DNA of 64,000 nt from an uncultured Dehalococcoidales bacterium. Lineage in GTDB: Bacteria; Chloroflexota; Dehalococcoidia; Dehalococcoidales; BS750m-G39. Shown in pieces: positions 30,286 through 52,958 of this stretch. Position numbers and translations under genes: made by a program. The stretch spans positions 22,941 to 86,940 of the forward strand of contig CAYNGD010000007.1 in assembly GCA_964396965.1 (NCBI GenBank), in the 5' to 3' direction. The first letter of the stretch is position 1. The number at the start of each line of letters is the position of its first letter. The notes beneath the pieces were generated by a model. The model saw only the letters and a list, made by a program, of their open reading frames with translations. It was not told the origin of the DNA and made no database searches.

Positions 30286-30317
30286 CTCTCTTCATTTAAG
30301 ATAGCGGAGTAATAGCT

Positions 30318-34647: not shown

Positions 34648-35638
34648 CCTCTTTGTTCTCCAGGGCCAGTTCTACAATCCTACCGATAAACTGCGGGTAG
34701 GTCATGCCGGCGGCCTCGGCCTGCCGCACCGCCCCCGAGCCGGGGGAGATATCGGGGTTGGGGTTGGCCTCGATAACATTAAGCTGCCCCGCCTCATCCC
34801 GCCGCATATCAACTCTAGCATAGCCGCGGCAGCCGAGCAAGCCGAGGGCGGCAAGGGCGGTTTTAGCGATTTCCTCCCTCTCGCTGTCTTCGATTTGGGC
34901 CGGGCAAATTACCTTAGTACCCTGAAAATATTCGCTTTCGGGCTGCCACTTGGCAGCGAAGGTGAGCAGGCGGGGCACCCCCTCCGGCAACGAGTAATCT
35001 ATCTCGGAAACGGGCAGGACGGTATCACCGAGCACGGTAGCGTTGAACTCGTGGCCTTCGATGAAATGCTCAACCAGGGCCTGCCCGCCGTAGTAGCGGC
35101 TGACCGCGGTCACCTGCTTTTCCAACGAGGCAAAGTCACTGACCACGTTCTGCGCCGAGAGCCCGTGGCTGGCGTCCTCACGGCGGGGCTTGACGATGCA
35201 GGGGTAGCTCAGGTGGAAGCTGGAGAGATTCTCCGGCCGGAGCAGCTGGAAATCGGGGGTGGCAATACCGGCGTTCTTTAAGAGCGCCTTGGTCCTGGCC
35301 TTGTCCAGGGCTAATTTGAGGGCCGCGGCAGAACAGCCGGTGAAGGGCAGTTTGAGCGCCGCTAGCATTTCGACTATCTCGGCCTCTGTCTCCGGGTGGC
35401 CGGCAAAGCCCTCGAAGAGATTGAAGACCAGGTCGGCCTTCAGGGCAGCCAGCCTTTCCCGGGCGCGGGGCAGGGGCGGCACCAGGGGGAGCTTGACCAC
35501 GCCGTAGCCTGATTTGAGCAGGGCATCCTCCACCGCCTCCACCGCCTCAAGGACACCGCTGACGGCGGCCCGCTCACCGCGCTCGTCATAGCGGCTCTTC
35601 AGGGGTTCGTTATAGACGATGGCTACACGGCGACGCAC
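34574..35638 (-). CDS. D-alanine--D-alanine-ligase-like ATP-grasp amidoligase (paralog 2)
   Basis: 354 aa with Ddl-family architecture (FNLFEGFAGHPETEAEIVEMLAALKLPFTGCS; ATP-grasp core with ARVDMRRDEAGQLNVIEANPNP). Its 3' end overlaps the GNAT start by 74 nt. Confidence 0.8.
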   Translation of the reverse strand: MRRRVAIVYNEPLKSRYDERGERAAVSGVLEAVEAVEDALLKSGYGVVKLPLVPPLPRARERLAALKADLVFNLFEGFAGHPETEAEIVEMLAALKLPFTGCSAAALKLALDKARTKALLKNAGIATPDFQLLRPENLSSFHLSYPCIVKPRREDASHGLSAQNVVSDFASLEKQVTAVSRYYGGQALVEHFIEGHEFNATVLGDTVLPVSEIDYSLPEGVPRLLTFAAKWQPESEYFQGTKVICPAQIEDSEREEIAKTALAALGLLGCRGYARVDMRRDEAGQLNVIEANPNPDISPGSGAVRQAEAAGMTYPQFIGRIVELALENKEDGGQDTPDAEKGQFGRDGAAARPA

Positions 35639-36621
35639 GGAGAGTACCTTTTCAAGGCGGCCTCAAAGACTGCCTGTATCAGCCCCTGTTGCGTCCAGCC
35701 CAGCTTCTGGGCCATGATAATCAGGTCGCTGTAACTGCCCAGCCCGGGCAGGGGGTTTATCTCCAGGAAATAGGGAATTCCACCTGGGCCGATTCTGAAG
35801 TCGATACGGGCGAAGTCTCGGCAACCCAAGACTTTAAAAACCTTGAGGCTGGCCAGAGCAATCCTCTCATTAACCTCGTCGGCCAGCCTGGGGGGAGACT
35901 CGTAGTCAACCAGGTTGAGGTAATCTCGCTTTACCTCCAGTGAGTAGACGAAGTGCCCCTCACTTTTCCGGGGCAGGATGCGCATCAGGCCCACCAGGCG
36001 GGGCGGAGCATTGCCGATAATACCGGCGGTGACCTCGTCACCGCTGATGAACTCCTCAGCCATCACCGGCTGCCGGTAATCGTTAAGCAGGCGGCTCACC
36101 TCTCTGGTCATCTCCTCCCGGCTTTCCACCACCGAGCTGGAGCGGATGCCCTTGCTCGAGCCTTCGTAGGCCGGCTTGACGATGGCCGGGAATTTCTCCC
36201 AGGCTAGTTTACCCAGCTCCTCCTCGTCGTTTACCATCTGCCACTGCGGAGTAGCGATACCTTCGGCGGCCACCAGCCTCTTGGCTAGCGGTTTGTCCAG
36301 GCAGACGGTCAGGCAGTGGGAGTCCGAGCCGGAATAGAGGATGCCCAGCATCTCCAGAACAGCCGGCACCTGGGACTCGCGGCTGCGTGAGCTGCCCCTC
36401 CCCTCGGCGATGTTAAAAACGATGTCAACCTTCTCCCGCCGTATGTTGTCCAGGAACTCCTCGCCCCCGCCCAGCAGCACCACCGAGTGTCCGGCGGCAG
36501 CCAGCGCGGCAGCGATAGTCTCCACCGTCTCCCGGGAGTCATACTCCTCTAAAGCGTCTTCGGGGGCGGCGGCGTCCAAGGGTATGGCTGACTTAAGATC
36601 GTAGGCTAAGCCTATCCGCAT
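35623..36621 (-). CDS. D-alanine--D-alanine-ligase-like ATP-grasp amidoligase (paralog 1)
   Basis: 332 aa (FNIAEGRGSSRSRESQVPAVLEMLGILYSGSD; ARIDFRIGPGGIPYFLEINPLPG). It overlaps both neighbouring genes. Confidence 0.8.
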   Translation of the reverse strand: MRIGLAYDLKSAIPLDAAAPEDALEEYDSRETVETIAAALAAAGHSVVLLGGGEEFLDNIRREKVDIVFNIAEGRGSSRSRESQVPAVLEMLGILYSGSDSHCLTVCLDKPLAKRLVAAEGIATPQWQMVNDEEELGKLAWEKFPAIVKPAYEGSSKGIRSSSVVESREEMTREVSRLLNDYRQPVMAEEFISGDEVTAGIIGNAPPRLVGLMRILPRKSEGHFVYSLEVKRDYLNLVDYESPPRLADEVNERIALASLKVFKVLGCRDFARIDFRIGPGGIPYFLEINPLPGLGSYSDLIIMAQKLGWTQQGLIQAVFEAALKRYSPCVAV

Positions 36622-37948
36622 CCCTGGTTCCTGCCTTCTTGACCGCTACCGGCACCTTAACCGACAAGGGCAGTTGCGCCGGCACTGGCTTGGCCCTGGC
36701 CTTCAGCCTGGGGTTGTGGCAGTGGTAGATATGGCCGCGGTAGTTCCTCACCAGAATCCTGTCCCCGTTCTGAGAGAGGATATAGTTGGGCTGCACCGGC
36801 ACCTTGCCCCCTCCCTGGGGCAGGTCAATAACGAAAGTGGGCACCGCCAGCCCCGAGGTGTGGCCGCGCATACCCTCGATTATATCCAGGCCAGTTGCCA
36901 GCGGCGTGCGCAGGTGCTCCGTCCCCTCCACCTCGTCACACTGGAAGAGGTAGTAGGGTCGCACCTTAATCCTTAGCAGCCCCTGGCACAGTTTGGTCTG
37001 TGCCTCCACACTGTCGTTGATGCCGCGCAGCAGCACGCTCTGGTTGTTCACCGGGACGCCGCTCCGCACCAGCCTGTCGCAGGCGGCAGCTGCCTCCGGA
37101 GTTATCTCGCGGTAGTGGTTGAAATGGGTGTTGAGCCATATCGGGCCATATCTGGAAAGCATGGCGCAAAGCTCGTCATCGATGCGCTGGGGCAGCACCA
37201 CCGGGAAGCGGCTGCCGATGCGGATAATCTCGACGTGCTCTATCTGCCGCAAGCTGCCGATAACGCCCTCAAGGTGGTGGGTGGATAGAGTCAAGGGGTC
37301 ACCGCCGGAGATGACCACATCCCTGACCGCCTTATGATTGCGGATGTAGTCCAGCATGGCCTCAATTTCGCCGAGGGTGCGCACCCAACCGCCATGCCTC
37401 CACTCCCGCTTGCGGGTGCAGTGGCGGCAGAGCATGGGGCAGATATCGGTCAGCACCATTAAAACACGGTCGGGGTAGCGGTGTACCAGTCCGGGGACAA
37501 CCGAGTCCCTCTTCTCCTCAAGGGGGTCTTCGCTGCCGATTCCGGCCAGGGCTATCTCCTCAAAGGCGGGCACGGACTGAAGCCGAATGGGGTCTTGGGG
37601 GTCATCGGGGTCAATCAGGGAAAGATAATAAGGGGTTATTGCCAGCGGGTACTTGATGGTGACCAGCCTGAGCCTGGCCTGTTCTTCAGCAGTCAGGGGT
37701 ATATAGCTGGCCAGTTGTTCGACGGTGGTGATGCGGTGGCGGAAGTGCCACCTCCAGTCTTTCCAGAGGCTATCGGGTATGTGCCCAAAGAATCTTCGTC
37801 TCTGGGCGCTGGTACTGGGAGGTTCCCCCTCCGGGGTGGTAACTATAGCTGCGCCGGGAGGTTCCTCCTCGGCCTCAGCCGCGGTCTCTATAGAATATTT
37901 TTCCGCCCTCAGGGCGGGTTGTTTTTTAATTATTCCAGGTGCTTTCAC
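36593..37948 (-). CDS. kamA: KamA-family radical-SAM aminomutase (lysine 2,3-aminomutase-like)
   Basis: Radical-SAM CPMLCRHCTRKR, plus WKDWRWHFRHRITTVEQL, AITPYYLSLIDP, HRYPDRVL, VRPYYLFQCD and FVIDLPQGGGK. GTG start. The first ~60 aa form a low-complexity N-terminal extension. Confidence 0.88.
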   Translation of the reverse strand: MKAPGIIKKQPALRAEKYSIETAAEAEEEPPGAAIVTTPEGEPPSTSAQRRRFFGHIPDSLWKDWRWHFRHRITTVEQLASYIPLTAEEQARLRLVTIKYPLAITPYYLSLIDPDDPQDPIRLQSVPAFEEIALAGIGSEDPLEEKRDSVVPGLVHRYPDRVLMVLTDICPMLCRHCTRKREWRHGGWVRTLGEIEAMLDYIRNHKAVRDVVISGGDPLTLSTHHLEGVIGSLRQIEHVEIIRIGSRFPVVLPQRIDDELCAMLSRYGPIWLNTHFNHYREITPEAAAACDRLVRSGVPVNNQSVLLRGINDSVEAQTKLCQGLLRIKVRPYYLFQCDEVEGTEHLRTPLATGLDIIEGMRGHTSGLAVPTFVIDLPQGGGKVPVQPNYILSQNGDRILVRNYRGHIYHCHNPRLKARAKPVPAQLPLSVKVPVAVKKAGTRDADRLSLRS

Positions 37949-38082: not shown

Positions 38083-38189
38083 ATACACTAAATATATTTC
38101 CTAAATAAATTATACACATTTTGTACCGGTTGTCAATAGGATTTTAGTTATTTTTGACAGCCGATTAGCTGGAAGCAGGAGGTGTCAGA

Positions 38190-38512: not shown

Positions 38513-39523
38513 TTACAGCTCCCAGAAGCTGCGCAGCTCCCGGAAGTCAATCAAGCCGTTCTCGGCGACATTTTCAATCTCGATACCGGCCTCAACGGCG
38601 GCCGCCACCGGATTAAGACCGCCGAGCTGGACGATACCAACCCGGTTCAGGGCCACCGGAATCTGGCAGAGCGGCTCGCTGGTACCGCCAACGGCAAAGA
38701 TGCCGCCGATGCCGACCTCCTTGAGCCGGGCTATCCTCTCCTCGACAACCTCCCGGGCCGGTGCCGGCACCGTCCGGAAAACGCCCAGTATCTTGCCGCT
38801 CCCCGTACTAGCGGCCTTGCCGACGCTGGTCATCCTGGCCTGGATGAACTGCTCGGAAGGGTCAACCGAGGTACCGGCATAGTCAATTATGGCGACAAAG
38901 CGCCTGGGCTTTAGATTTCTAACCTCAAGCAGGCCGCCAAAGCGGAACTCCACCGGCACCCCTGCCTTGAGCAGCACGCCGTTTGTGGCCACGCTGCAGA
39001 CGGTGGCCAGGCCAATCTTACCCTCGGGCACCACCGCCGTCCCCAGCTTCTCCCCCTCATTGGCGGTGGCCACCAACTCGCTGACGCAGAGCCCGGATTT
39101 AAAGGCGCCCTTCATCACCGCCAGCGCCTTCTTGAACTGCTCCCTATCGATGAGCGAGGTGTTTATCGGTAATTGGCCGCTGCCCTTTTCCGGGTCGAAA
39201 CTGGTCTGGTAGGCCAGCAGCTCCAGCTTATCGCGCACAAAGCCGAGGTGCTGAGGGGCCAGGGCCTCCTTGACCTCCCGCCGCCCTTCCTCAGTAATCA
39301 TCCGCCCATCCCGTCCGGCGGGCTGGGTATAGCCGCGTTCGTCGGCTATCTTCAGGTGATACCTCACCCCCCGCTCGCTCAAGAAAACCCCTTCGTCCTC
39401 AAGCCGGCGGGCAATAGTGATTGAACCCAGTGGTTCCGAGGACTCGCTCAAGACCTTGAGAATAGATATTAGCTTACCTTCGGCGTCGGAACCAACGACC
39501 TGTTCCGCCATCAGCCTCGCCAC
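38513..39523 (-). CDS. nrpR: NrpR-type nitrogen repressor homolog (wHTH + one DUF128/NRD domain)
   Basis: 336 aa. N-terminal wHTH (LISILKVLSESSEPLGSITIARRLEDEGVFLSERGVRYHLK), then a DUF128-like body. It is the last gene of the nitrogen cluster. GTG at 39523 or ATG at 39511. Confidence 0.72.
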   Translation of the reverse strand: MARLMAEQVVGSDAEGKLISILKVLSESSEPLGSITIARRLEDEGVFLSERGVRYHLKIADERGYTQPAGRDGRMITEEGRREVKEALAPQHLGFVRDKLELLAYQTSFDPEKGSGQLPINTSLIDREQFKKALAVMKGAFKSGLCVSELVATANEGEKLGTAVVPEGKIGLATVCSVATNGVLLKAGVPVEFRFGGLLEVRNLKPRRFVAIIDYAGTSVDPSEQFIQARMTSVGKAASTGSGKILGVFRTVPAPAREVVEERIARLKEVGIGGIFAVGGTSEPLCQIPVALNRVGIVQLGGLNPVAAAVEAGIEIENVAENGLIDFRELRSFWEL

Positions 39524-41639: not shown

Positions 41640-42983
41640 TTACAGTACTGGCAGGTATTTTTTAAGCTCGTACTCGGTTACCTGAGCCTTGTACTGGTTC
41701 CATTCTATCTTCTTGTTCTCGATAAAGGCCTTGAAAGTGTGCTCACCGAGGGCCTTGCGCACCACCTCGCTCTTCTCGGCCAGCAGTATAGCCTCCAGCA
41801 GGCTGGCGGGCAAGGTGCCGATACCTCGCTCCTGCCTTTCTGCCTCGGTCATCTCATATACGTTTTCTTCTATCGGCTTCGGGACTTCGTAACCCTTTTC
41901 GATGCCTTCCAGCCCGGCGGCCAGCATAACGCTGAAGGTGAGGTAAGGATTACAGGCCGGGTCAGGAGACCTGAATTCTATCCTGGTGGCTTTTTCCTTG
42001 CCCGGCTTATATTCGGGAACCCTCACTAAGTCAGCCCGGTTTCGCCTTGCCCAGGATTGGTATACCGGCGCCTCGTAGCCGGGCACCAGCCGCTTATAGG
42101 AGTTGACCCACTGGTTACAGACAGCCGTAATCTCAGGGGCGTGTTTGAGCAAGCCGGCGATATAACACTTGGCTATCTTGGACAGGTGGTAGGCATCATC
42201 TTTATCAAAGAAGGCGTTACGTTCGCCCTTGAAAAGCGACTGGTGGACGTGCATACCGCTGCCGTTGATGCCGAAGATGGGCTTGGGCATAAAGGTAGCG
42301 TAGAAACCGTTTTGGATAGCAACCTGCTTCACCACCAGCCGATAGGTCATCACGTTATCGGCCATGGTCAGGGCGTCGGTATAGCGCATATCTATTTCAT
42401 GCTGGCTACCGGCCACTTCATGGTGAGAATACTCTACGCCGATGCCAAGCTCCTCCAGGGCGAGCACGGTCTCACGGCGCAGGTCGGTGGCCATATCCAG
42501 CGGGATAAGGTCGAAATAGCCGCCAAAGTCGAGCTGTTCGGTGTCCTGGGAATTCCTGAAGTAGAAGTATTCCAGCTCCGGCCCCACGTAAAAGGTATAG
42601 CCTAGGTCGGCCGCCCGCTTGAGGTTCCTCTTGAGGACAAACCTGGGGTCGCCCTCAAAAAGCTCGCCCCCCGGCCTCAAGACGTCACAGAACATACGGG
42701 CCACGGCGCGGTGCTCGCGCGGACGCCAGGGTAGCAACCGGAAGGTCTCCGGGTCGGGCAGGGCAACCATATCGCTTTCGTCGATGCGGGCAAACCCCTC
42801 AATCGAAGAACCGTCAAACCCCATGCCTTCCTCCAGGGCCCCTTCCAATTCCTCCACAGTGATGGCAAAGCTCTTGAGCATCCCTAAGATATCGGTAAAC
42901 CACATACGGATAAACTTAACATCGTGCTCTTTGGCCATCTTCAGGACATAGGCTTTACCTTCTTCCCGGCTTCTGTTTGTCAT
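41640..42983 (-). CDS. glnA: glutamine synthetase, type I
   Basis: 447 aa with GFDGSSIEGFARIDESDM and GINGSGMHVHQSLF. AGGAGG SD upstream. Confidence 0.92.
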   Translation of the reverse strand: MTNRSREEGKAYVLKMAKEHDVKFIRMWFTDILGMLKSFAITVEELEGALEEGMGFDGSSIEGFARIDESDMVALPDPETFRLLPWRPREHRAVARMFCDVLRPGGELFEGDPRFVLKRNLKRAADLGYTFYVGPELEYFYFRNSQDTEQLDFGGYFDLIPLDMATDLRRETVLALEELGIGVEYSHHEVAGSQHEIDMRYTDALTMADNVMTYRLVVKQVAIQNGFYATFMPKPIFGINGSGMHVHQSLFKGERNAFFDKDDAYHLSKIAKCYIAGLLKHAPEITAVCNQWVNSYKRLVPGYEAPVYQSWARRNRADLVRVPEYKPGKEKATRIEFRSPDPACNPYLTFSVMLAAGLEGIEKGYEVPKPIEENVYEMTEAERQERGIGTLPASLLEAILLAEKSEVVRKALGEHTFKAFIENKKIEWNQYKAQVTEYELKKYLPVL

Positions 42984-43062
42984 ATTTACCTCCTATTACA
43001 GCTTTTGTACCTTTCTTTTTTGATTAACTATTATAATATATCCGCCTAAATATATACACACC

Positions 43063-44627
<1,565 letters not shown>

Positions 44628-44733
44628 TTAAAAACCCCCGTGGTCTAGTTATCCCAAATAGTCTAACCGGCGATTGTTTCCAACAGATTACAGGGGAGTT
44701 AAATTTAGGTTACAGATTGATAAACAGGGGCTT

Positions 44734-45414
44734 TTAAGCCTTAAAGCGGTAGCCGATGTTCCTCACCGTCTCGATGAAAGAATGGCTGGCGTCCTCAATC
44801 TTGCTCCTGAGCCTACGCACGTGCACGTCCACCGTCCGGTCGCCGCCGTAGTAGTCGTAGCCCCAGACCTGGTTGAGCAGGGCTTCACGGCTGTAGACGC
44901 GGCCCCGGTGGCTGGCCAGGAACTTGAGCAGCTCGTACTCCTTAAAGGTAAGCTCGACTGTTCTGCCCTCCAGGGTCACCTCGCAACTGGCCAGGTCGAG
45001 CAGCAGGCCGTCGCACTGGACCAGCTCGCCGCCCTCTATGTTCCGGGCTTTGCTCAAAAGCCTCTTGGCCCTTAAGGCAAGCTCCCGTCCCTCGCCGGGG
45101 CTGGTGATGAAGTCATCGATATCGAGGCTGCCGTTAAGGTTGTCCAGCATCTCCCGGGGGAGCAGGGCTATAACCGGCAGGTGTTTTTCCTCTTTCAGCC
45201 CCCGGACGATTGCCTGCATTTCAGCGGCCGGCAGGCTGCCGTCTATTTCAAGCAGGACTAAATCGGGGCGATAGGTGCTTATCTCCTTGTCCAGCTTCTG
45301 GCCGTGAGGAACGATGGAGCAGGCAAAGCCGCTGCCGGTCATCTGGGAACGAAACTCGGCCAGCTCCCCGGTCTCCCTAGCTATCATCAGCAGCCGCAGC
45401 ATGGTCATCCCCAT
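44734..45414 (-). CDS. OmpR/PhoB-family regulator with degenerate (pseudo-)receiver domain
   Basis: The C-terminal winged helix is intact (ELTFKEYELLKFLASHRGRVYSREALLNQVWGYDYYGGDRTVDVHVRRLRSKIE). Aligned by eye to PhoB, the receiver loses the acidic pair (VVEDE -> MIARE). It also changes the phospho-Asp (LLD -> LLE), Thr (MLTA -> ALLP) and Lys (ITKP -> ITSP). Confidence 0.85.
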   Translation of the reverse strand: MGMTMLRLLMIARETGELAEFRSQMTGSGFACSIVPHGQKLDKEISTYRPDLVLLEIDGSLPAAEMQAIVRGLKEEKHLPVIALLPREMLDNLNGSLDIDDFITSPGEGRELALRAKRLLSKARNIEGGELVQCDGLLLDLASCEVTLEGRTVELTFKEYELLKFLASHRGRVYSREALLNQVWGYDYYGGDRTVDVHVRRLRSKIEDASHSFIETVRNIGYRFKA

Positions 45415-46172
45415 CAGTAGGCGTAGAGGCGGCCATAAGGCCGCAGCCAGCGGGGGAAAAGTTTTATAAAATTGCGCTTCATTATTTCTTCGGCATTATA
45501 GCCGAAGTGAGCGGCGAATTCGCCGACCAGCTGCTTAAGGACCTTTAGGTCGGCCTCCTCAAGCTGAGTAACGCCCACCTCTTTGCCCAGCTGGTGCTCC
45601 TCGACATTGCCCCTCAGGTAGATAACGCCGCCGTGCATGCCGGTACCGATGAAATTGGCCTTGTGGTTCTCGCCCTCTTTTAGATTAAGACCCAGCAGAA
45701 TAAGCACGCCGCCGGCCATGTACTCGCCGAGGAAGTCCTGGGCGGTTCCACCGATGACCAGCGCCGGCCCCCGTCCCTGGTACTCTTTCATATGGATGCC
45801 CGCCCGGTAGCCAACGTCCTCTTTGACGAAGATTTTACCGCCTCGCGCCGATAGCCCGATGATATCGCCGGCGTGGCCGTGGATGACTATCTCGCCCTCG
45901 TTCATGGTGTTGCCGCAGCCGTCCTGGGCGTTGCCGTGGACGATAATCCGGGGCCCGTTCATAAACGCCCCCAGGTCGTTGCCGGGGGTGCCAAATATCT
46001 CAATCTCCACCGGCCTGTCCAGGTCGGTGCCGATGTACCTCTGCCCGTGGACGTTGCGCAGCTCGATGCGGCGGGGGCTATTGGTGATGGCCTCCCTCAA
46101 ACTGGCGTTGAGCTCGCGGTAGTACACGCCGCTGGCGTCTATCTTGACTATCGAGTTCTTCCGACTAGCCAT
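45414..46172 (-). CDS. glutamate synthase domain 3 (GXGXG-motif / GltB C-terminal domain) protein
   Basis: 252 aa from MASRKNSIVKIDASG. Repeated beta-helix G-rich motifs (GTPGNDLGAFMNG, HGNAQDGCGNTM, HGHAGDIIG). The ATG at 46172 lies 2 nt after the upstream stop. The ORF-track extension to 46427 overlaps the preceding gene and is rejected. Confidence 0.85.
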   Translation of the reverse strand: MASRKNSIVKIDASGVYYRELNASLREAITNSPRRIELRNVHGQRYIGTDLDRPVEIEIFGTPGNDLGAFMNGPRIIVHGNAQDGCGNTMNEGEIVIHGHAGDIIGLSARGGKIFVKEDVGYRAGIHMKEYQGRGPALVIGGTAQDFLGEYMAGGVLILLGLNLKEGENHKANFIGTGMHGGVIYLRGNVEEHQLGKEVGVTQLEEADLKVLKQLVGEFAAHFGYNAEEIMKRNFIKLFPRWLRPYGRLYAY

Positions 46173-46174
46173 CT

Positions 46175-47677
46175 CTAGCTCCCGGCCATCCTCACTCCCA
46201 GTATCTCCAGCTCGGTATCGGTCAGGCCAACCCCCCTCAGGTGCAGGCGGTTGCCCCTCAGGCTCTCGATGGCGTTGACCCCCAGCCCGCCCAGTATATC
46301 TTTTAGCTCGATGCTCCAGCCTCTTAATAAATTGGCCAGCCTTCGGGCGCCGATGTCGGGGTTGACCCGCTTGGTCAGGCGGAGGTCGGTGGTGCATATT
46401 CCCCAGGCGCACTTGCCGGTGTGGCACTGCTGGCAGACATGGCAGCCCAGGGCGATTAAGGCCGCCGTGCCGATATAGACGGCGTCCGCCCCCAGGGCGA
46501 TGGCCTTGGCCACGTCGCCGCTGTTCCTGATGCCGCCGGAGACAACGATAGAGGCCTGGTTGCGTATCCCCTCTTCGCGCAGACGTGTGTCCACCGAGGC
46601 CAGCGCCAGCTCTATAGGGATACCCACGTTATCCCGGATAACCTTGGGCGCCGCCCCGGTAGCGCCCCGGAGCCCGTCCAGGACGATAATATCGGCACCG
46701 CCCCGCACCATGCCGCTGGCGATGGCCGCCGAGTTGTGGACGGCGGCAATCTTGACCGAGATAGGCTTGGTATAGTTGGTCGCCTCCTTTAAAGCGTAGA
46801 TAAGCTGGGCCAGGTCTTCTATAGAGTAGATATCGTGCTGGGGCGCCGGCGACAGGGCGTCCGTACCCCGGGGAATCATTCGCGTTAATGATACTTCAGC
46901 GCTCACCTTTTCTCCGGGCAGGTGCCCGCCGATGCCCGGCTTGGCCCCCTGACCAATCTTGATCTCGACCACCCTGGCCGCGTCCAGGTAGTCGGCATAA
47001 ACGCCGAAGCGCCCGGAGGCCACCTGGACGATGGTGTTGTCGCCATACTTATATAAGCTGGGGTGGAGACCGCCCTCACCGGTGTTCCATAAAGTCCCCA
47101 TCTCGGTGGCCGCCCTGGCCAGAGAGGTATGCACGTTGAGGCTGACCGCCCCGTAGGACATGGCGGCGAACATCACCGGCACCTCCAGCCTCACCTGCGG
47201 GGCCAGCTTTGTCTTTAGATGATTGGACTTATCCAGCTCCAGCCGGTCGGGCTTACTCCCCAAGTATGTGGTAAGCTCCATCGGCTCACGGAGGGGGTCG
47301 ATGGAGGGGTTGGTAACCTGGCTGGCGTTGAGCACCAGGTGGTCCCAGTAGATTCGCTGCCCCTTGTCGTCGCCCATGCCGGTTAGCAGCACCCCGCCGG
47401 TCTCGGCCTGCTTCAGGATGTCATCGACCACTTCGGGGCGCCAGTTATAGTTCTCGCGGTACTCCTGAGGGTTGCGGATGATGGTCAGCGCCTGGGTAGG
47501 GCAAAAGACCTCGCAGCGGTGGCAGCCGACGCAGTTCTCCTCCCGGCTCCTGACCTCGTTGTCCTCGGCGTCATAGTAGTTGGCGTCAAACGAGCACTGG
47601 TTGACGCAGACCTTGCACTGGATGCAGCGCTCCGGGTCCCGCCTTACTATAAATTTAGGTGCTATATAGGTCTTCAT
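46175..47677 (-). CDS. glutamate synthase domain 2 (FMN-binding) with N-terminal 2x[4Fe-4S] ferredoxin domain (archaeal-type)
   Basis: 500 aa with CIQCKVCVNQC and CVGCHRCEVFCP, then the GltB FMN/TIM-barrel core (GEGG, KIGQGAKPGIGGHLPG, GGTGAAP-like RGATGAAP, and 3Fe/4Fe Cys in CHVCQQCHTGKC). Confidence 0.9.
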   Translation of the reverse strand: MKTYIAPKFIVRRDPERCIQCKVCVNQCSFDANYYDAEDNEVRSREENCVGCHRCEVFCPTQALTIIRNPQEYRENYNWRPEVVDDILKQAETGGVLLTGMGDDKGQRIYWDHLVLNASQVTNPSIDPLREPMELTTYLGSKPDRLELDKSNHLKTKLAPQVRLEVPVMFAAMSYGAVSLNVHTSLARAATEMGTLWNTGEGGLHPSLYKYGDNTIVQVASGRFGVYADYLDAARVVEIKIGQGAKPGIGGHLPGEKVSAEVSLTRMIPRGTDALSPAPQHDIYSIEDLAQLIYALKEATNYTKPISVKIAAVHNSAAIASGMVRGGADIIVLDGLRGATGAAPKVIRDNVGIPIELALASVDTRLREEGIRNQASIVVSGGIRNSGDVAKAIALGADAVYIGTAALIALGCHVCQQCHTGKCAWGICTTDLRLTKRVNPDIGARRLANLLRGWSIELKDILGGLGVNAIESLRGNRLHLRGVGLTDTELEILGVRMAGS

Positions 47678-47687
47678 CCTCTTACCC

Positions 47688-48455
47688 CTAAAGCCTCACC
47701 GGTATTCCCCGCTCGGCCAGATATTTCTTTATATCACCGATGGAGTAGGTCCCGTAGTGAAAGATGCTGGCCGCCAGCACGGCATCGGCCTTGCCCAGGA
47801 CCAGCGCCTGATAGAGGTCCTCGGGAGAACCGGCACCGCCGCTGGCAATCACCGGCACGCTCACCGCCTCGGAGATGGCCCGGGTAAGCTCGTTGTCGTA
47901 GCCGGTCTGGTGTCCGTCGGCGTCCATGCTGGTAAGAAGTATCTCGCCGGAGCCGAGCTCAACCACCTTATTAGCCCACTCGATGGCGTCAAGCCCGGTG
48001 GGTTTCTGGCCGCTCTGGATATAGACCTCCCATTTAGGCTTCTCACCCCCGTTTACCCTCTTGGCGTCAATGGCCACCACGATGCACTGGCTGCCGAACT
48101 TATCGGCGCCCTCCTTAATCAGATCGGGCTTGAGCACCGCCTCGGTATTGATAGATACCTTATCGGCGCCGGCCAGCAGCATCCGCCGCATGTTGGCTAT
48201 TGTTCGCAGTCCCCCGCCGACGGTAAGCGGCATGAATACCTTCTCTGATATACGCTCGACGACGTCAACCATGGTGTCGCGCCCCTCCGGGGTGGCGGTG
48301 ATGTCTAGAAAGACCAGCTCGTCGGCGCCCTCTTTATAGTAGAAGTCAGCCCTCTCCACCGGGTCTCCAGCGTCACGCAGCTGGACAAAACTCTTGCCCT
48401 TGACCACCCGCCCGCCTTTGACGTCCAGGCAGGGTATGATTCTTTTGGTCAGCAT
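47688..48455 (-). CDS. hisF: imidazole glycerol phosphate synthase cyclase subunit
   Basis: 255 aa with [33 protein letters not shown] and ASGGAG. Confidence 0.92.
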
Positions 48456-48456
48456 T

Positions 48457-49581
48457 TTATTTAACTCCCCCGGCCACTCTATTCCTAGCCCCTACCTTTA
48501 ATCTGCCCACCACCGGCTGGCCGCCCATCGGTATCCAGGCCTTGTCCAGATCGGGGGCTATCAGCCGTATCGCCGACTCCTCCGAGGATAGATAGAGCAT
48601 CTCCCCCTTCTCCCCCACCGTGAGCGGCCTCAGGCGAATACGGTCGGTCAGACCTATCATCTCGCCGTGGTGGGCGATAATCACGGCGAAGGGTCCGTTC
48701 AATAGCAGGCTGCCGTAGACCTGGCGCAGTGCCAGCATCAGCTTCTGCTCCTCCAGCGGCATACGCCCGATGACCTCCCAGAAGGGCGGCGCCAGTATCT
48801 TGGCCACTATCTCCAGGGGCAGGTGGTGCTGGCGCATCAATAAATCAACGGCGTAGGCCACCACCTCGGTATCGGTCTGCATGGTACACTGGTAGCCAAA
48901 CTGCTCCAGGTAGCGCCTGTTTATTCCGTAGGAAGAAATCTCGCCGTTGTGGATGACCGTCCAGTCCAGTATGCAGAAGGGGTGCGCCCCACCCCACCAG
49001 CCGGGGGTGTTGGTCGGGAAGCGTCCGTGGGCGGTCCAGAGGCAGCCCTGGTACTGTTCCAGGCAGAAGTAGTCGGCAATCTCCTCGGGGTAGCCAACAC
49101 CTTTAAAGACCCCCATGTTCTTGCCGCTGGAGAAGACGAAGCTGTCGCACAGCTCGGTATTTATGGTCATTACCTTTTCCAGCACGTAGTCATCAGCGGA
49201 CTTCCGGCCTGGTTTATTTATGTCAAGGAAATAGCGCCGGACCAGCGGCGGGTCCTTGATTACCGGCACCGGCCTGGTCGGCACCTCCTCCTGCTCGATG
49301 ACCTTGAAATTGTCCTTTAGAAACGCCTCCGTCTCCTGCCTCCCCTGCTGGCTCAGGAACATGATGTGCAGGGCGTACTGGTCGGCGTATTCGGGGTAGA
49401 GGCCGTAGATGGCGAAGCCGCCGCCCAGCCCGTTGCCGCGGTCGTGCATGTTGGCGATAGCCTTAATTACCCCCTCACCGGAGAAGCGCCGGCCGGTAAT
49501 GTTCATTGCCCCGAATACGGAACAGGCGTCGATTACCTTGTTATCGTTATTGGGGTTATTTATCCGCCAGATGTTTTTCAC
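48457..49581 (-). CDS. glutamate synthase domain 1 (class-II glutamine amidotransferase) protein
   Basis: 374 aa. The Ntn-type catalytic Cys context (DACSVFGAM) is preceded by a short propeptide. [12 protein letters not shown] also present. Confidence 0.85.
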
Positions 49582-49583
49582 CG

Positions 49584-50933
49584 CTATTCTCCAATAACCG
49601 CCTCTTCCGGTTGCTCGGGCGGCGGTACTATAGAACCCGCCTCAGCGGGCGGTGCCGCCAGCCTATCCCGCCAGATTGCCTCGGGCAGGGAGGCCAGGCC
49701 GAAGTCATCGGCAACCAGCATCTCTTTGAAGGCCGCCACATCTATTCTGTCCTTCATCAGATTGTAGATAATGCCCGCCTTTTCGATATCGCCGACCAAA
49801 ATCATGCCCAGTATCTTACCGTCCTTTAATATTATCTTTTTATAGATGCCGTCGCCCCTCTTTAGCAAGACTTCATAGCTGTCATCAGGCGGGCTGACCA
49901 TCCCCGCCGAGAGGATATTCACCCCGAAATACTTGAGGGCGTTCATGGCGGTGCCGCCCTGATATTCGGCCTTCTTACCGGCCATATTCAGGCCGGCCAC
50001 CCTGCCACCGATATAGGCATTGGGCCAGACCGGAGTCAGCCGGTTCTCGCCGTAAACGAAATCATAGGCCTGACTGGCATCGCCGCAGGCATAGACGCCG
50101 GAAACTGAGGTCGCCATGCGGCGGTCAACGATGATGCCCCGGTTAGTCTTGACCCCGCTGCCGGTCACCAGGTCGAGACGCGGCCTGACGCCGATGGCGA
50201 TGACGACCATGTCGCAGGCCAGAGAGCGCCCGTCGTCAAGGCTGACCCCGCTGACCTCGCCGAGCCGACTGCCATTGATTCTGGCCACGGTGTGTCCCGT
50301 TATCAGGTCAACGCCAGCCTTAACCAGGGCTTCCGCCTCGAAGCCCGCCGCCTCCTCATCGAGGATGGTGTTCAGGACCCAGTCCTTCATCTCAACGATG
50401 CTGACCCCAACCCCACGCTTGACTAAAGCCTCGGTGGCGCTCACCCCGATAAGCCCCCCGCCGATGACCACCGCCTTGAGCACTCCCTGGCGCTGCTTCA
50501 GGAATTTATCAATGGCCTCGGCGTCGCCGAGGGTGGTGAAGGTGAAAACGCCCTTTAGCTCTCTACCCTCTATACTATCGGGCACGATGGGCACGCCACC
50601 GGTGGCCAATAATAGCTTCTGCCAGGCAATTATTCGCCCGCTGGCCAGCTCAATATCACGTTCGGTGAAATTAATCCGCACCACTTTATCGCCCAGGATG
50701 GTCTTGATTTTGTTCTTCTCATAGAAATCGGCGGGGCGGTAGAGCATCCTCTCCAGGGGACGCCCCTCAGCCAGGTGCTCCGAGATAAGCGGGCGTGAGT
50801 AGGCCGGGTAGGGCTCTTCGGAGACGATAGCCAGCGTCCCCACCCGGTCCACCCCACGGATGGCCTCGGCGGCGGCGATGCCCCCAGCCGAGTTGCCGAT
50901 GATCAGATAGTTTATTTTCTCTTCTCTGGCCAT
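49584..50933 (-). CDS. FAD/NAD(P)-dependent pyridine-nucleotide-disulfide-family oxidoreductase (NADH-oxidase-like)
   Basis: 449 aa from MAREEKINYLIIGNSAGGIAAAEA (FAD GxGxxG), with a second dinucleotide fold VVIGGGLIGVSATEAL and ACGDAS. The ATG at 50933 lies 1 nt after the hisH stop. The ORF-track extension to 51056 is rejected. Confidence 0.85.
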   Translation of the reverse strand: MAREEKINYLIIGNSAGGIAAAEAIRGVDRVGTLAIVSEEPYPAYSRPLISEHLAEGRPLERMLYRPADFYEKNKIKTILGDKVVRINFTERDIELASGRIIAWQKLLLATGGVPIVPDSIEGRELKGVFTFTTLGDAEAIDKFLKQRQGVLKAVVIGGGLIGVSATEALVKRGVGVSIVEMKDWVLNTILDEEAAGFEAEALVKAGVDLITGHTVARINGSRLGEVSGVSLDDGRSLACDMVVIAIGVRPRLDLVTGSGVKTNRGIIVDRRMATSVSGVYACGDASQAYDFVYGENRLTPVWPNAYIGGRVAGLNMAGKKAEYQGGTAMNALKYFGVNILSAGMVSPPDDSYEVLLKRGDGIYKKIILKDGKILGMILVGDIEKAGIIYNLMKDRIDVAAFKEMLVADDFGLASLPEAIWRDRLAAPPAEAGSIVPPPEQPEEAVIGE

Positions 50934-50934
50934 T

Positions 50935-51576
50935 TTATTGCCGCCTGTCTGCTTTTTCGCCCAGGGCAATCCTGATAAAATTATCGTATATCTTGAGCCC
51001 CACCTCGCCGCTCTTCTCCGGGTGGAACTGGGTGGCCACCAGGTTTTCCCGGGCAATCACGCTGCAGAAGGTGACGCCGTAGTCAGTCGTGCCGGCCACC
51101 AGCGATCTGTCCTCCGGCTCGACATAGTAGCTGTGGACAAAGTAGAAGTTGGCCTCATCAGCTATGCCGGCGAAGATGGGGTGGGCGAACTTCTGTTTCA
51201 CCTGGTTCCAGCCCATGTGGGGGACCTTCAGGCCCGGGGAGAATTTGCGCACCGCACCGGGGATAATGCCCAAGCACTCGTTCCAGCCACCCTCCTCGGT
51301 GCCGCTGAAGAGCACCTGCAGCCCGATGCAGACCCCCAAGAAGGGCCTCCCCTCAGCGATGTAGCCCTTAATCGGGCCTTCCAGCCCCAGTTTGCGCAGG
51401 CCGGCCATAGTATCGGCGGCGGCGCCCACCCCGGGCAGGATAACCGCCCGCGCGCTCATAACCTCGTCAGGGCGGTCGGTCACCCTGGCCTCATAGCCCA
51501 GCCGGCTGACAGCGTTGACCACGCTGCACAGGTTGCCAGCGCCGTAATCGATTATGGCAATCACCTGAACTCCCAC
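50935..51576 (-). CDS. hisH: imidazole glycerol phosphate synthase glutamine amidotransferase subunit
   Basis: 213 aa with IAIIDYGAGNL, catalytic GVCIGLQ, HMGWNQV and FYFVHSY. Confidence 0.9.
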   Translation of the reverse strand: MGVQVIAIIDYGAGNLCSVVNAVSRLGYEARVTDRPDEVMSARAVILPGVGAAADTMAGLRKLGLEGPIKGYIAEGRPFLGVCIGLQVLFSGTEEGGWNECLGIIPGAVRKFSPGLKVPHMGWNQVKQKFAHPIFAGIADEANFYFVHSYYVEPEDRSLVAGTTDYGVTFCSVIARENLVATQFHPEKSGEVGLKIYDNFIRIALGEKADRRQ

Positions 51577-51589
51577 TCTTCCTATTTTA

Positions 51590-52054
51590 TTACCGGCTCT
51601 TTAGCTCAGCGCTGCCCTCCGGGACCTCGATATAGACCAGCGCCTCGTTGGGGCAGTTGGCCACACAGACCGGGATCTCCTCCCCCTGGCAGAGGTCGCA
51701 CTTGAGCGCCTTCTTTTTCTCTATGTCCGGCCTTATCGCCGCCAGCGGGCAGACCAGCAGGCAGGTCCAGCAGCCGATGCACCTCTCCTCGTCCACCCTG
51801 ACCATGCCGCTCTCCAAGTCTCGGGCCAGCGCGCCGGTAAGGCAGGCCTGGACACAGGGGGCGTCCTCGCAGTGCTGGCAGCGCACCGAAAGCGATACTA
51901 CCCCCCCCTCATCCACCCGGAGCCTGGCCGGCGGCGGTGACTCCCTCTTGAACGCCTTGACCAGGTCTTTGGTACCGGCGTGCTTGAGCTGGCAGTACAC
52001 CTCGCAGAGGTGGCAGCCGATGCAGACCTCTTCCTTAACGTAGACCTTCCTCAC
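51590..52054 (-). CDS. 4x[4Fe-4S]-motif ferredoxin-like electron-transfer protein
   Basis: 154 aa with four Cys clusters (CIGCHLCEVYC, CQHCEDAPCVQAC, CIGCWTCLLVCP, CDLCQGEEIPVCVANCP). GTG start with a GGTGA SD. First gene of the operon. Confidence 0.85.
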   Translation of the reverse strand: MRKVYVKEEVCIGCHLCEVYCQLKHAGTKDLVKAFKRESPPPARLRVDEGGVVSLSVRCQHCEDAPCVQACLTGALARDLESGMVRVDEERCIGCWTCLLVCPLAAIRPDIEKKKALKCDLCQGEEIPVCVANCPNEALVYIEVPEGSAELKSR

Positions 52055-52074: not shown

Positions 52075-52130
52075 ATACGGTAAACGGTTACCGTATGCCA
52101 TATAATAGCAGATATAATAATATTTGTCAA
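52075..52130 (-). promoter_or_regulatory. sigma70-like promoter plus 22-bp perfect palindrome operator for the GOGAT/his/amt operon
   Basis: Read on the minus strand: TTGACA (52125-52130), N17, TATTAT (52102-52107). ATACGGTAA-N4-TTACCGTAT (52075-52096) covers the predicted +1 region, 21 nt upstream of the GTG start. Confidence 0.45.
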
Positions 52131-52256
52131 CTCTCCCGAATCAGACCTGAATACGGAGACTACAACAGCCACTATTTTAACATTAAATCAGGGGGTAAGC
52201 CAAGATGAAGGGCTGACCATAATGAGCTTACCGCGGAGCATCTTGTTTCCCCTTTT

Positions 52257-52312
52257 TTGACCCCGGCTGCCCTTTTGTGCTAAAATTATTTGTTGACCAA
52301 AATAGTCAACAA
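52257..52312 (+). promoter_or_regulatory. sigma70-like promoter plus palindrome operator upstream of a small Cys-rich ORF
   Basis: TTGACC (52257-52262), N18, TGcTAAAAT (-10 at 52281-52286). TTGTTGAC-N7-GTCAACAA (52290-52312) lies over the predicted transcription start. Confidence 0.4.
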
Positions 52313-52344
52313 AAGGCCTTCGCCTAAGAGAGGAGATAGAGAAG

Positions 52345-52500
52345 ATGAAAACGGTGAAGCTGTGTCGGGAAGGGACGTGCTGTCCCGCAGTCAGGGTAAC
52401 AGAATCAAAGGTGGAAATCGGTGAGGGAGAAAACACCTGCACCCTCACCAGGGAACAGTGGGAAATCCTCAAAGAAAAGGTAATCAAGAAAGAGCTTTAA
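52345..52500 (+). CDS. hypothetical 51-aa Cys-rich protein
   Basis: Not in the ORF track because it is under 60 aa. Sequence MKTVKLCREGTCCPAVRVTESKVEIGEGENTCTLTREQWEILKEKVIKKEL. GAGGAG SD lies 8 nt upstream of the ATG. It explains the region better than the antisense ORF 52188-52487. Confidence 0.55.
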   Translation: MKTVKLCREGTCCPAVRVTESKVEIGEGENTCTLTREQWEILKEKVIKKEL

Positions 52501-52578
52501 CCGGCCAAACCGGAATCAAACACCGTAAATAAACTGTCAGCCCCCTGTTTACCCAATTTAAAGCGCCGCTAGGCAAGG

Positions 52579-52908
52579 ATGCCGGACTTAGAGTTTACCG
52601 ATATCGTCCTGTTTATTACCACGGCCGATGCTGAAGAAGCCAGCCGCATCGCCGAAGTGCTGGTGAAGAAAAGGAAGGCGGCCTGCGTAAATATCCTGCC
52701 CGGGGTCAGCTCCCTTTTCTGGTGGCAGGGCAAAATGGAGAGAGTTGACGAAAGCCTGCTGATGGTCAAGTCCCGGGCCTCGTTACTGGACCAGATTATA
52801 AAACTGGTTAAAGAGCACCACAGCTACGACGTGCCGGAGATAATCGCCCTGCCCATTATCGGCGGTAATCCGGATTATCTGAAGTGGATAGCTAAAGAGC
52901 TGAAATAG
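52579..52908 (+). CDS. cutA: divalent-cation tolerance protein CutA
   Basis: 109 aa with the CutA1 pattern (AACVNILPGVSSLFWWQGK...HSYDVPEIIALPI). Confidence 0.85.
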   Translation: MPDLEFTDIVLFITTADAEEASRIAEVLVKKRKAACVNILPGVSSLFWWQGKMERVDESLLMVKSRASLLDQIIKLVKEHHSYDVPEIIALPIIGGNPDYLKWIAKELK

Positions 52909-52958
52909 ACCGCCGCTTGCTTTAGACGCCGGAGTCAGCTACTATTATGTAGCGTAAA

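Follow-up and report, generated by a model that had tools for sequence, protein, structure and literature searches.

Several regulators with an OmpR/PhoB-type DNA-binding domain act without phosphorylation. Among them is actinobacterial GlnR, whose structures include 8HML and 8HIH (PMC10235972), an orphan that activates at amtB by recruiting RNA polymerase (PMC10235972) and whose Asp-50/Asp-48 is unphosphorylated yet required for homodimerisation (PMC10704036, PMC12632262). HP1043 of Helicobacter and ChxR of Chlamydia are constitutive dimers (review PMC12632262). How pseudo-receivers, meaning recognisable receiver folds without key catalytic residues, are switched was called "a mystery" in a 2025 review (PMC12632262), and what actinobacterial GlnR responds to has likewise been described as unknown to date (PMC10704036). 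The repressor NrpR controls nif and glnA, and 2-oxoglutarate relieves this repression (PMC9765008, PMC4902934). Here we describe an OmpR-type regulator with a degenerate receiver that is encoded in a 64,000-nucleotide stretch of an uncultured Dehalococcoidales bacterium (contig CAYNGD010000007.1; this whole stretch is called the window), between the genes of a glutamate synthase (GOGAT) and amt-glnK-glnA.

By analogy with GlnR in actinobacteria, the regulator most likely switches on the adjoining ammonium-uptake genes. For the cluster as a whole, comparison of related loci makes a two-tier cascade fairly probable, in which an NrpR homologue encoded at the other cluster end would gate the phosphorylation-independent activator and the activator would turn on amt-glnK-glnA.

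A protein search returned more than 7,600 OmpR-type matches, of which the top 120 are full-length relatives (61-100% identity), almost all metagenomic and annotated only as "OmpR family" or "PhoP". In a collection with one genome per species, 580 stretches encode relatives. The locus comparisons draw on the best 80 of these, and the 81 orthologues analysed below are the translations from these 80 loci plus the window protein. Metagenome-assembled genomes of Dehalococcoidia or other Chloroflexota account for 77 of the best 80 (one labelled only 'bacterium'); two of the others are labelled Deltaproteobacteria (the closest, at 72-74% identity) and one Thermodesulfovibrionales. A word-index search with the receiver half alone gave 14 matches, all from the family itself, and reached no other family. 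Judged by these best 80 loci, the regulators appear to form a family that has no earlier description and is nearly confined to Dehalococcoidia genomes.

The cluster has a conserved order: Fer4, (HisH-like), NAD(P)H oxidoreductase, GATase_2, (HisF-like), FMN/Glu_synthase, GXGXG, regulator, amt, glnK, glnA, nadE-like and nrpR. It is kept in about 80 loci at 45-74% regulator identity (tblastn of the window neighbours), and the regulator is therefore tied to nitrogen assimilation; the position between GOGAT and amt-glnK(-glnA) that the initial annotation had singled out is thus a conserved one.

A winged helix joined to a pseudo-receiver

44734..45402, minus strand: regulator coding sequence, probable start ATG 45402 (M5 of the longest open reading frame), 222 amino acids
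44734..44736, minus strand: stop codon of the regulator (list of open reading frames)
45046..45402, minus strand: pseudo-receiver domain, residues 5-123 (model secondary structure, alignments, weak Pfam scores, orthologue residue counts)
45247..45249, minus strand: codon GAA of E56, the phospho-acceptor position at the end of β3 (sequence, HMMER alignments, model)
44737..45027, minus strand: winged-helix DNA-binding domain, residues 130-226 (Trans_reg_C, GlnR 8HML match)

As the longest open reading frame (ORF), the regulator gene spans 44734..45414 on the minus strand and encodes 226 amino acids (ORF list); its first codon, ATG at 45414, overlaps the TGA stop of the preceding GXGXG gene by a single base (TGATG). 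The overlap of start and stop reported in the initial annotation holds for this longest ORF and is lost with the likelier start. Homologues mostly have 222 amino acids (best matches of the protein search), and almost every one of the 45 orthologous loci displayed has a start codon (ATG, GTG or TTG) where the window protein has M5; this codon is preceded by a Shine-Dalgarno sequence (GGGG or GGAGG) and lies 10-20 nucleotides (nt) past the upstream stop. This retention of both start and Shine-Dalgarno sequence makes ATG 45402 the most likely true start, giving a protein of 222 amino acids that begins 11 nt after the GXGXG stop. The two genes remain tightly coupled despite the 11-nt gap, and a scan of their junction for promoters and terminators found neither.

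Searched with the whole protein, Pfam returned Trans_reg_C (PF00486) only, at residues 150-224 and over the full profile (1-77 of 77, E=1.9e-29), so the C-terminal winged helix is intact, as had been claimed. The N-terminal 129 residues alone reach E=0.18 and 12.4 bits against Response_reg, below its 30.2-bit cutoff; this profile comparison, proposed with the initial annotation, is in line with the substitutions described there. Against GlnR_1st (PF21695) the N-terminal half scores E=0.021 and 13-15 bits, below the 27-bit cutoff. Across the family, 71 of 97 members match Response_reg at E<0.1 and 51 of 97 match GlnR_1st, the bit score against GlnR_1st having been checked for the first member only (below cutoff). 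Full-length NCBIfam models align from residues 8-25 to 225 with about one third of their cutoffs (PhoB, TIGR02154, 126 bits of 296; YycF 124 of 340; MtrA 123 of 300; NblR 111 of 300) and give no equivalog membership. Since the winged helix is found and the receiver stays below threshold, the regulator has the two domains of the OmpR/PhoB type, with a receiver that has diverged strongly. Cyanobacterial NblR (NF045914) resembles it as an OmpR-type regulator of nutrient and nitrogen stress and is among the better full-length profile matches (residues 8-224), but with 110.7 bits against a 300-bit cutoff the regulator is not a member, and the genomic context differs.

An AlphaFold2 model built from 97 family members (mean predicted local distance difference test score 75.5) gives the receiver a (βα)5 fold of five β-α units, from β1 (6-11) through α5 (109-123). 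Foldseek places the model with the OmpR/PhoB two-domain fold in the PDB (PrrA, RpaA, BaeR, GlnR, PhoP and MtrA at E ~1e-14) and could not separate GlnR from the other OmpR/PhoB members there. HP1043 (2hqr) is another structural match. Like the regulator, HP1043 and ChxR are OmpR/PhoB-type orphans with degenerate receivers that act independently of phosphorylation; unlike them, it has a nitrogen link and a different regulon, shows no specific sequence kinship to either, and its level is, as the comparative data suggest, set by an upstream repressor.

The initial annotation had read the loss of nearly every phosphorylation residue by eye from four strings, MIARE, LLE, ALLP and ITSP. All four occur in the protein, and alignment confirms the substitutions. 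MAFFT, run on 23 homologues and PhoB (a sequence entered by hand, here and for BLASTP), sets A12/R13 against PhoB E9/D10, L85 against T83 and S105 against K105, and HMMER alignments to RegX3, TorR, ArcA, RstA and GlnR put E56 opposite the acceptor Asp. In the AlphaFold2 model E56 closes β3 (52-56), L85 stands at the end of β4 and S105 follows directly on β5; as modelled, the three residues occupy the canonical structural positions of the phosphorylation residues.

Among the 81 orthologues the acceptor position 56 is E in 45, A in 15, D in 12, N in three, V in two, T in two, Y in one and P in one. The Thr position 85 carries V, I, L or A in 80 of them, the Lys position 105 is S in 21, K in 21, E in 19 and other residues in the rest, and position 13 of the acidic pair varies between R, Q, E, N, D and K. 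Because orthologues with the same synteny and the same operator tolerate almost anything at the five phosphorylation positions, the receiver is a true pseudo-receiver, in which the (βα)5 fold is kept and the phosphorylation quintet is absent. It is a pseudo- or aspartate-less receiver in the sense of the definition given above (PMC12632262).

Both BLASTP and MAFFT can shift PhoB D53 onto D58, and the initial annotation had allowed that an Asp such as D58 might lie at the acceptor position of an intact pocket. This does not hold. D58 falls in the β3-α3 loop of the model and is not conserved (D in 41, N in 20, G in eight and S in seven of the 81 orthologues); it was rejected as an alternative acceptor on both grounds, and the Thr, Lys and acidic-pair residues are absent whichever alignment is chosen. 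We therefore regard an ordinary phosphorylation-dependent regulator, served by a distant kinase and accepting phosphate on D58 or E56, as disfavoured and very improbable. The alignability of D58 with D53 and the Asp at position 56 in 12 orthologues would fit it, but in 24 same-synteny orthologues the acceptor is A, N, V, T, Y or P, and the rest of the pocket is missing or variable. Nor is there a candidate partner nearby, as the initial annotation had stated for the immediate neighbours: no histidine kinase adjoins the regulator in the window cluster or in the 80 related loci, where amt flanks the regulator on one side and GXGXG (or an NrpR paralogue) on the other, and no HisKA-type kinase, the type that partners OmpR regulators, occurs among the ORFs scanned in the window. 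The sole kinase among the 20 large ORFs and the cluster scanned in the 64 kb is of the PAS-HisKA_3 type (30318..31787).

E. coli PhoB shares with the regulator the fold, the recognition helix RTVDVH(V/I)RRLR and the numbering of D100, D101, E111 and R115, but needs phosphorylation of D53 by PhoR, whereas the regulator has no acidic pair, Asp, Thr or Lys. What is conserved in the receiver (P50, L52, P80, D100, D101, F102, P106, E111 and R115) lies mostly on the β5-α5 face, which in PhoB-family structures forms the α4-β5-α5 dimer interface.

The pentamer array at the amt promoter

44676..44713, minus strand: predicted operator, four direct pentamers at 11-nt spacing (sequence, blind motif, weight matrix, metagenome scan)
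44709-44713, minus strand: pentamer a1, GTAAC
44698-44702, minus strand: pentamer b1, TTAAC
44687-44691, minus strand: pentamer a2, GTAAT
44676-44680, minus strand: pentamer b2, GAAAC
44660..44665, minus strand: -10-like hexamer TAGACT, 10 nt downstream of b2 (sequence)
41640..44627, minus strand: predicted target operon amt-glnK-glnA (Pfam, weight-matrix matches)
43398..44627, minus strand: amt (Pfam Ammonium_transp)
43063..43401, minus strand: glnK (Pfam P-II)
41640..42983, minus strand: glnA (Pfam Gln-synt)

The 106-nt spacer between regulator and amt contains, on the minus strand, GTAAC-CTAAAT-TTAAC-TCCCCT-GTAAT-CTGTTG-GAAAC. This array was first spotted by eye and then subjected to three tests independent of that reading. 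Gibbs sampling of 38 orthologous spacers without the window yielded a 44-nt motif, nAaATTTAAC-n6-GTAAT-n6-GaAAC-A...cTA, with 38 bits compared to about 10 bits for shuffled sequences. A 42-nt position weight matrix (PWM) from the other loci scores the window site at 55.9 bits, with 5.7 bits for the runner-up in the 64 kb and a shuffled maximum of 2.0. Lastly, a metagenome scan with the pattern TTTAAC-n6-GTAAT-n6-GAAACA (b1-a2-b2) only, made without gene information, returned 120 stretches; the regulator gene immediately precedes the match in 53 of them, and amt immediately follows it in 73. After removal of redundancy, 74 of 109 matches lie in a nitrogen-gene context. The a1 pentamer had not been searched for, yet GTAAC or GTAAT stands exactly 11 nt upstream in 65 of the 74 nitrogen-context matches compared to one of the 35 others. 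Given the agreement of blind motif, PWM and metagenome scan, the four-site array is real, and by these sequence comparisons it belongs to the amt/glnK/glnA promoters.

Across loci, a 19-nt PWM of a2-b2 matches upstream of amt (81), glnA (eight) and glnK (four), and in no locus upstream of the GOGAT operon or nrpR. Autoregulation by the regulator was rejected on the ground that no GlnR-type boxes lie upstream of the GOGAT operon in any locus. The window holds no second array: the next 42-nt score is the 5.7 bits given above, and weak 19-nt matches at 19891 and 30387 are within chance.

The array has the layout of a GlnR operator. In the GlnR cis-element, a1(gTnAc)-n6-b1(GaAAC)-n6-a2-n6-b2 with the core consensus GTAAC, four GlnR protomers are placed around -35 in the M. 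tuberculosis GlnR-RNA-polymerase complex 8HIH (PMC10235972). The fourth-position A, which is irreplaceable for GlnR (PMC10704036), is 96% conserved in a2 and b2 here. The feature that marks GlnR boxes (a-n6-b, two boxes 6 nt apart, at nitrogen promoters) is present upstream of amt-glnK around -35, and binding by the regulator is predicted. A row of four directly repeated pentamers, spaced 11 nt apart, corresponds to winged-helix domains bound in tandem, head to tail.

A consensus promoter scan of the regulator-amt spacer found no σ70 promoter. At -35 distance the hexamer is ATCTGT, with one of six matches to TTGACA, and cTAnAnT recurs at the same distance from b2 in the other loci as TAGACT does here. 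The amt promoter would thus have an activator-dependent layout, in which the array stands in for the -35 element, and from the missing -35 together with a -10 at fixed distance we infer that a multimer of the regulator activates amt-glnK and probably also glnA. Pho boxes have the same geometry: repeats of 11 nt in tandem take the place of the -35 element, about 10 nt ahead of the -10, the promoters are activator-dependent, and PhoB activates there by likewise recruiting RNA polymerase.

Two other uses of the array have to be weighed. The regulator could bind it as a repressor or roadblock of amt-glnK-glnA when nitrogen is sufficient, occluding the promoter or stopping read-through from GOGAT. 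GlnR itself represses some targets (PMC10704036). The array also overlaps the amt core promoter region, and the scan shows no terminator between regulator and amt. However, a repressor from an operon induced by nitrogen limitation would stop ammonium uptake exactly when it is needed, and the missing -35 with a -10 fixed 10 nt from b2 in dozens of loci is the activator geometry, as at pho boxes. GlnR at amtB offers the same picture (PMC10235972), and we consider repression improbable. An equally slim chance goes to another factor as the binder of the array, with other targets for the regulator and a cluster position of mere association. Here, 21 metagenome matches carry the array before amt without the regulator gene directly upstream, and the pairing of regulator and array is a prediction. 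Yet 11-nt direct pentamer repeats are a hallmark of OmpR/PhoB winged helices, whereas NrpR binds an inverted repeat; the cluster has no further OmpR-type gene, the regulator stands immediately upstream in the 53 of 120 blind matches, and the array fits the consensus of the closest solved DNA-binding domain. Activation by the regulator remains our preferred reading.

That closest domain is GlnR. Compared with PDB chains consisting of the DNA-binding domain only, the regulator scores 125.9 bits with GlnR 8HML, then 98.5 with VicR, 97.7 with YycF and 89.6 with PhoB, a ranking among solved structures and not a phylogeny. BLASTP with S. erythraea GlnR, a fragment taken from the PDB-match output, gives 43% identity over 148 residues. 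The base-reading residues of GlnR are R186, V190, R193 and R194 in S. erythraea numbering (PMC10235972); they correspond to R193, V197, R200 and R201 of the regulator, whose recognition helix reads RTVDVHVRRLR, and R193, V197 and R201 are invariant in the 81 orthologues, with R200 present in 79.

The receiver tells a different story. Alone, it matches the TorR, ArcA, RstA, BfmR, MtrA and PhoP receivers in the PDB with 36-30 bits (E from 7e-8 to 1e-6 for TorR, ArcA and RstA), and no GlnR receiver is among its top 60 matches. The Asp essential to GlnR is replaced by Glu in the window regulator and is not conserved among the orthologues (A, N, V or T in some). Two defining features of the GlnR family, receiver type and conserved Asp, are thus lacking, and we therefore file the regulator under a separate aspartate-less OmpR-type family. 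The comparisons suggest a functional analogue of GlnR rather than a GlnR family member, with homology to GlnR confined to the DNA-binding domain, and make HP1043, ChxR and NblR remoter analogues; domain and operator were either inherited from a common ancestor with GlnR or are convergent. In other respects the likeness to GlnR (8HIH, 8HML, 8HIG) is close: both are orphan and phosphorylation-independent with an OmpR-type DNA-binding domain, and the predicted operator has the same a-n6-b-n6-a-n6-b layout with the same GTAAC consensus. Unlike GlnR, the regulator occurs in Chloroflexota/Dehalococcoidia, none of the best 80 loci being actinobacterial, and its gene forms part of a GOGAT operon that has an NrpR-type operator in front. 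The phosphorylation-independent, GlnR-like nitrogen regulator of the initial annotation is upheld in this sense by the conserved position, the DNA-binding domain closest to 8HML and the GlnR-box array at amt; the likeness extends to domain and operator, not to the receiver.

The glutamate synthase promoter, NrpR and the proposed circuit

45414..52054, minus strand: upstream operon ending in the regulator, archaeal-type split glutamate synthase (Pfam, conserved order)
Within this operon, minus strand, in order: Fer4 protein, HisH-like, pyridine-nucleotide oxidoreductase, GATase_2, HisF-like, FMN/Glu_synthase and GXGXG genes
45414..46172, minus strand: GXGXG gene (Pfam; start via tblastn of loci)
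52078..52130, minus strand: promoter of the GOGAT operon with palindrome (sequence, promoter scan)
52125-52130 and 52102-52107, minus strand: -35 TTGACA and -10 TATTAT with a 17-nt spacer, 11 of 12 consensus matches
52078..52093, minus strand: palindrome CGGTAACCGTTTACCG, fits GGnA-N6-TnCC, right after the -10
38513..39523, minus strand: nrpR homologue (Pfam NRD1_2 1.8e-78, HTH_12)

The GOGAT operon, which starts with the Fer4 gene at 52054, has a strong σ70 promoter that is followed by a 14-nt palindrome of NrpR-type shape, GGTA-N6-TACC. This is the sole intergenic zero-mismatch match to GGnA-N6-TnCC in the window, and the pattern occupies the same place in 36 of 40 orthologous GOGAT promoters compared to 0.5 expected from shuffles; in the loci L044 and L053 it is exactly GGAA-N6-TTCC. 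Reportedly, GGAA-N6-TTCC is the NrpR operator of Methanococcus, in work ascribed to Lie & Leigh 2003 and Lie et al. 2005; a full-text literature look-up of this string returned only an unrelated paper. No NrpR-type palindrome is present at the amt, glnA, nadE or nrpR promoters of the window.

In five loci the regulator is detached from GOGAT (L017, L031, L043, L068 and L080), and each of them has a σ70-type promoter, with the palindrome of the GOGAT promoter, immediately ahead of the regulator; in L017 and L043 a short remnant of the end of GXGXG comes after promoter and palindrome. The palindrome therefore tracks the regulator gene, and these loci are the strongest point in favour of the predicted NrpR-type control of the regulator. 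The candidate binder is NrpR itself, whose gene stands last in the cluster in most of the loci that extend that far. Like the NrpR regulon of methanogens, the cluster encodes an NrpR homologue and has the GGnA-N6-TnCC shape at the promoter of GOGAT and regulator; unlike there, the window NrpR is bacterial and is predicted to control an intermediate activator instead of, or besides, the assimilation genes directly.

About a dozen loci (L014, L029, L030, L032, L036, L038, L044, L046, L050, L057, L064 and L077) have a second NrpR paralogue inserted between GXGXG and regulator, about 1 kb upstream of the latter. It is more divergent, with 48-57% identity to the window NrpR, and hints at a direct functional link of NrpR-type proteins with the regulator.

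In the circuit we propose, the regulator would be an orphan OmpR/PhoB-type factor whose pseudo-receiver has kept its fold and its β5-α5 face (D100, D101, F102, P106, E111, R115) but has lost the capacity for phosphorylation. Several protomers, probably four, would bind head-to-tail on the four pentamers at 44676..44713 and, from this -35 site, recruit RNA polymerase and activate amt-glnK(-glnA) when nitrogen is scarce. The signal would not enter through the receiver. Instead, the regulator being the last gene of the glutamate synthase operon, NrpR from the other cluster end would sit on the palindrome of the GOGAT promoter, leave it at high 2-oxoglutarate, that is under nitrogen limitation, and so set the amount of a constitutively competent activator, with abundance as the presumed only control. 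The order of events would run from 2-oxoglutarate to NrpR, to GOGAT and the regulator, and on to ammonium uptake and glutamine synthetase. A riboswitch has no place in the cluster, since Rfam found no RNA family in the whole window.

More tentatively, nitrogen assimilation in Dehalococcoidia may depend on a novel hybrid of an archaeal-type NrpR and an aspartate-less activator, whose receiver serves only as a module for oligomerisation and RNA polymerase contact in a head-to-tail tetramer and has degenerated independently of GlnR, the DNA-binding domain and operator being convergent or inherited. We put this forward as a possibility of somewhat less than even standing.

32: codon ~45319-45321, minus strand, Cys C32
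134: codon ~45013-45015, minus strand, Cys C134
144: codon ~44983-44985, minus strand, Cys C144

A number of points weigh against this picture. The pairing of regulator and array is a sequence-based one that rests on adjacency, direct-repeat geometry and likeness to GlnR boxes, and the helix RTVDVHVRRLR is common to PhoB and WalR, so that the half-site likeness is not GlnR-specific; WalR sites are also TGTAAT-like. The terminator scan between regulator and amt found none, and amt could be fed by transcription running on from the GOGAT promoter, with no activator involved. Most loci have GG(T/C)A...T(G/A)CC rather than GGAA...TTCC at the palindrome, which another repressor could bind, and its identity as an NrpR operator leans on the reported consensus GGAA-N6-TTCC. 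Confidence of the AlphaFold2 model is moderate, with a poorly defined α4 region. Finally, cysteines C32, C144 and C134 are conserved in 77, 69 and 64 of the 81 orthologues and may leave room for redox or other post-translational input, which a model of abundance alone ignores.

C144 aligns with GlnR Y137, which sits at the interface between DNA-binding domains (PMC10235972), and is Tyr in the remaining 12 orthologues. As an observation in its own right, the three cysteines might serve as an input for redox state or metals, in the manner of RitR-type atypical regulators.

The initial annotation had placed the switch in sensing of a metabolite or of PII. Nothing was found for either, the freely varying pocket argues against a conserved ligand site there, and the comparative evidence points instead to an NrpR-type operator controlling synthesis of the regulator. 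A wider form of the idea is direct post-translational switching, by Cys redox as in RitR, by the modifications seen in Streptomyces GlnR (Ser/Thr phosphorylation, acetylation), or by binding of GlnK/PII or a metabolite, with the NrpR-type promoter merely supplying the protein. Redox control of RitR and modification of GlnR are documented (PMC12632262), glnK is part of the predicted target operon, a gene for a GNAT-deacetylase fusion lies 11 kb away, and the cysteines, C144 among them at the Y137 position, would suit such an input; the old phosphorylation pocket, however, is an unlikely ligand site, C144 gives way to Tyr in 12 orthologues, and switching of this kind could operate together with the cascade and does not contradict it. 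We hold it to be unlikely, though clearly the most serious of the alternatives, and continue to favour the NrpR-gated cascade.

In the two-amt genomes L017 (~5135), L043 (~12060) and L068 (~15970) the pentamer array stands before the first amt copy and the palindrome before the second; ammonium transporters would there be split between regulator and NrpR. A second perfect palindrome in the window, CGGAAAGGTCTTCCCG (GGAA-N6-TTCC, 60180..60195), lies inside a gene for an NMT1-like substrate-binding protein (59389..60396) and is probably a chance occurrence.

Novelty, significance and neighbouring genes

Full-text literature searches that paired GlnR or NrpR with Dehalococcoides, Chloroflexi, Chloroflexota or Dehalococcoidia gave no account of the regulator, the operator or the cascade, within a coverage that mostly excludes subscription papers; one 2007 phylogenomics paper holds both 'NrpR' and 'Dehalococcoides'. 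Phosphorylation-independent nitrogen activators of the GlnR type are known already; the novelty lies in the phylum, in a receiver whose decay appears to be independent of GlnR, and in the placement behind an NrpR-type operator.

For one pseudo-receiver, the family offers a testable answer to the question of switching: an upstream 2-oxoglutarate-sensing repressor would take the signal, and abundance would regulate. It is a convenient test system, with a precisely predicted operator, a promoter of fixed geometry and a natural allelic series at the former phosphorylation site. If the proposal is true, the series of E, A, D, N, V and T at the acceptor position with one shared operator amounts to a ready-made experiment on what a pseudo-receiver needs. 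The cascade would also be the first regulatory model of nitrogen assimilation for Dehalococcoidia, a class of importance to bioremediation and subsurface ecology in which hardly any transcription factor has been characterised, and it would show an archaeal-type NrpR and a GlnR-like regulator wired together in bacteria. The public labels "PhoP" and "OmpR family response regulator" are misleading for these proteins.

30318..31787, plus strand: PAS-PAS-HisKA_3-HATPase histidine kinase
29620..30285, plus strand: canonical NarL/LuxR-type response regulator

Together these two genes (29620..31787) are the only two-component pair found in the window and are unrelated to the regulator described here.

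47688..48455, minus strand: HisF-like gene
50935..51576, minus strand: HisH-like gene

Both are embedded in the split glutamate synthase operon, are present in most related loci and are absent, for instance, in L008, L012 and L015. As relatives of the imidazole-glycerol-phosphate synthase subunits, they could serve histidine synthesis or be a further glutamine-dependent module of the operon.

52094..52958: about 900 bp between the GOGAT-operon promoter and a divergent ThiF-family gene, with short ORFs only
52289..52313: hairpin with an 11-bp stem in this intergenic stretch, no Rfam family match
31784..33526, minus strand: gene for a 580-amino-acid protein, N-terminal GNAT acetyltransferase fused to a histone-deacetylase-family domain
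34574..37948, minus strand: lysine-2,3-aminomutase-like radical SAM gene followed by two D-Ala-D-Ala-ligase-type ATP-grasp genes, directly downstream of nrpR
38109..38136, minus strand: perfect promoter TTGACA-16-TATAAT, ahead of the radical SAM and ATP-grasp genes

The GNAT-deacetylase fusion is an unusual pairing of writer and eraser, and stands beside the fact that actinobacterial GlnR is regulated by lysine acetylation. The radical SAM and ATP-grasp genes may encode a pathway for a β-lysine-derived peptide or solute.

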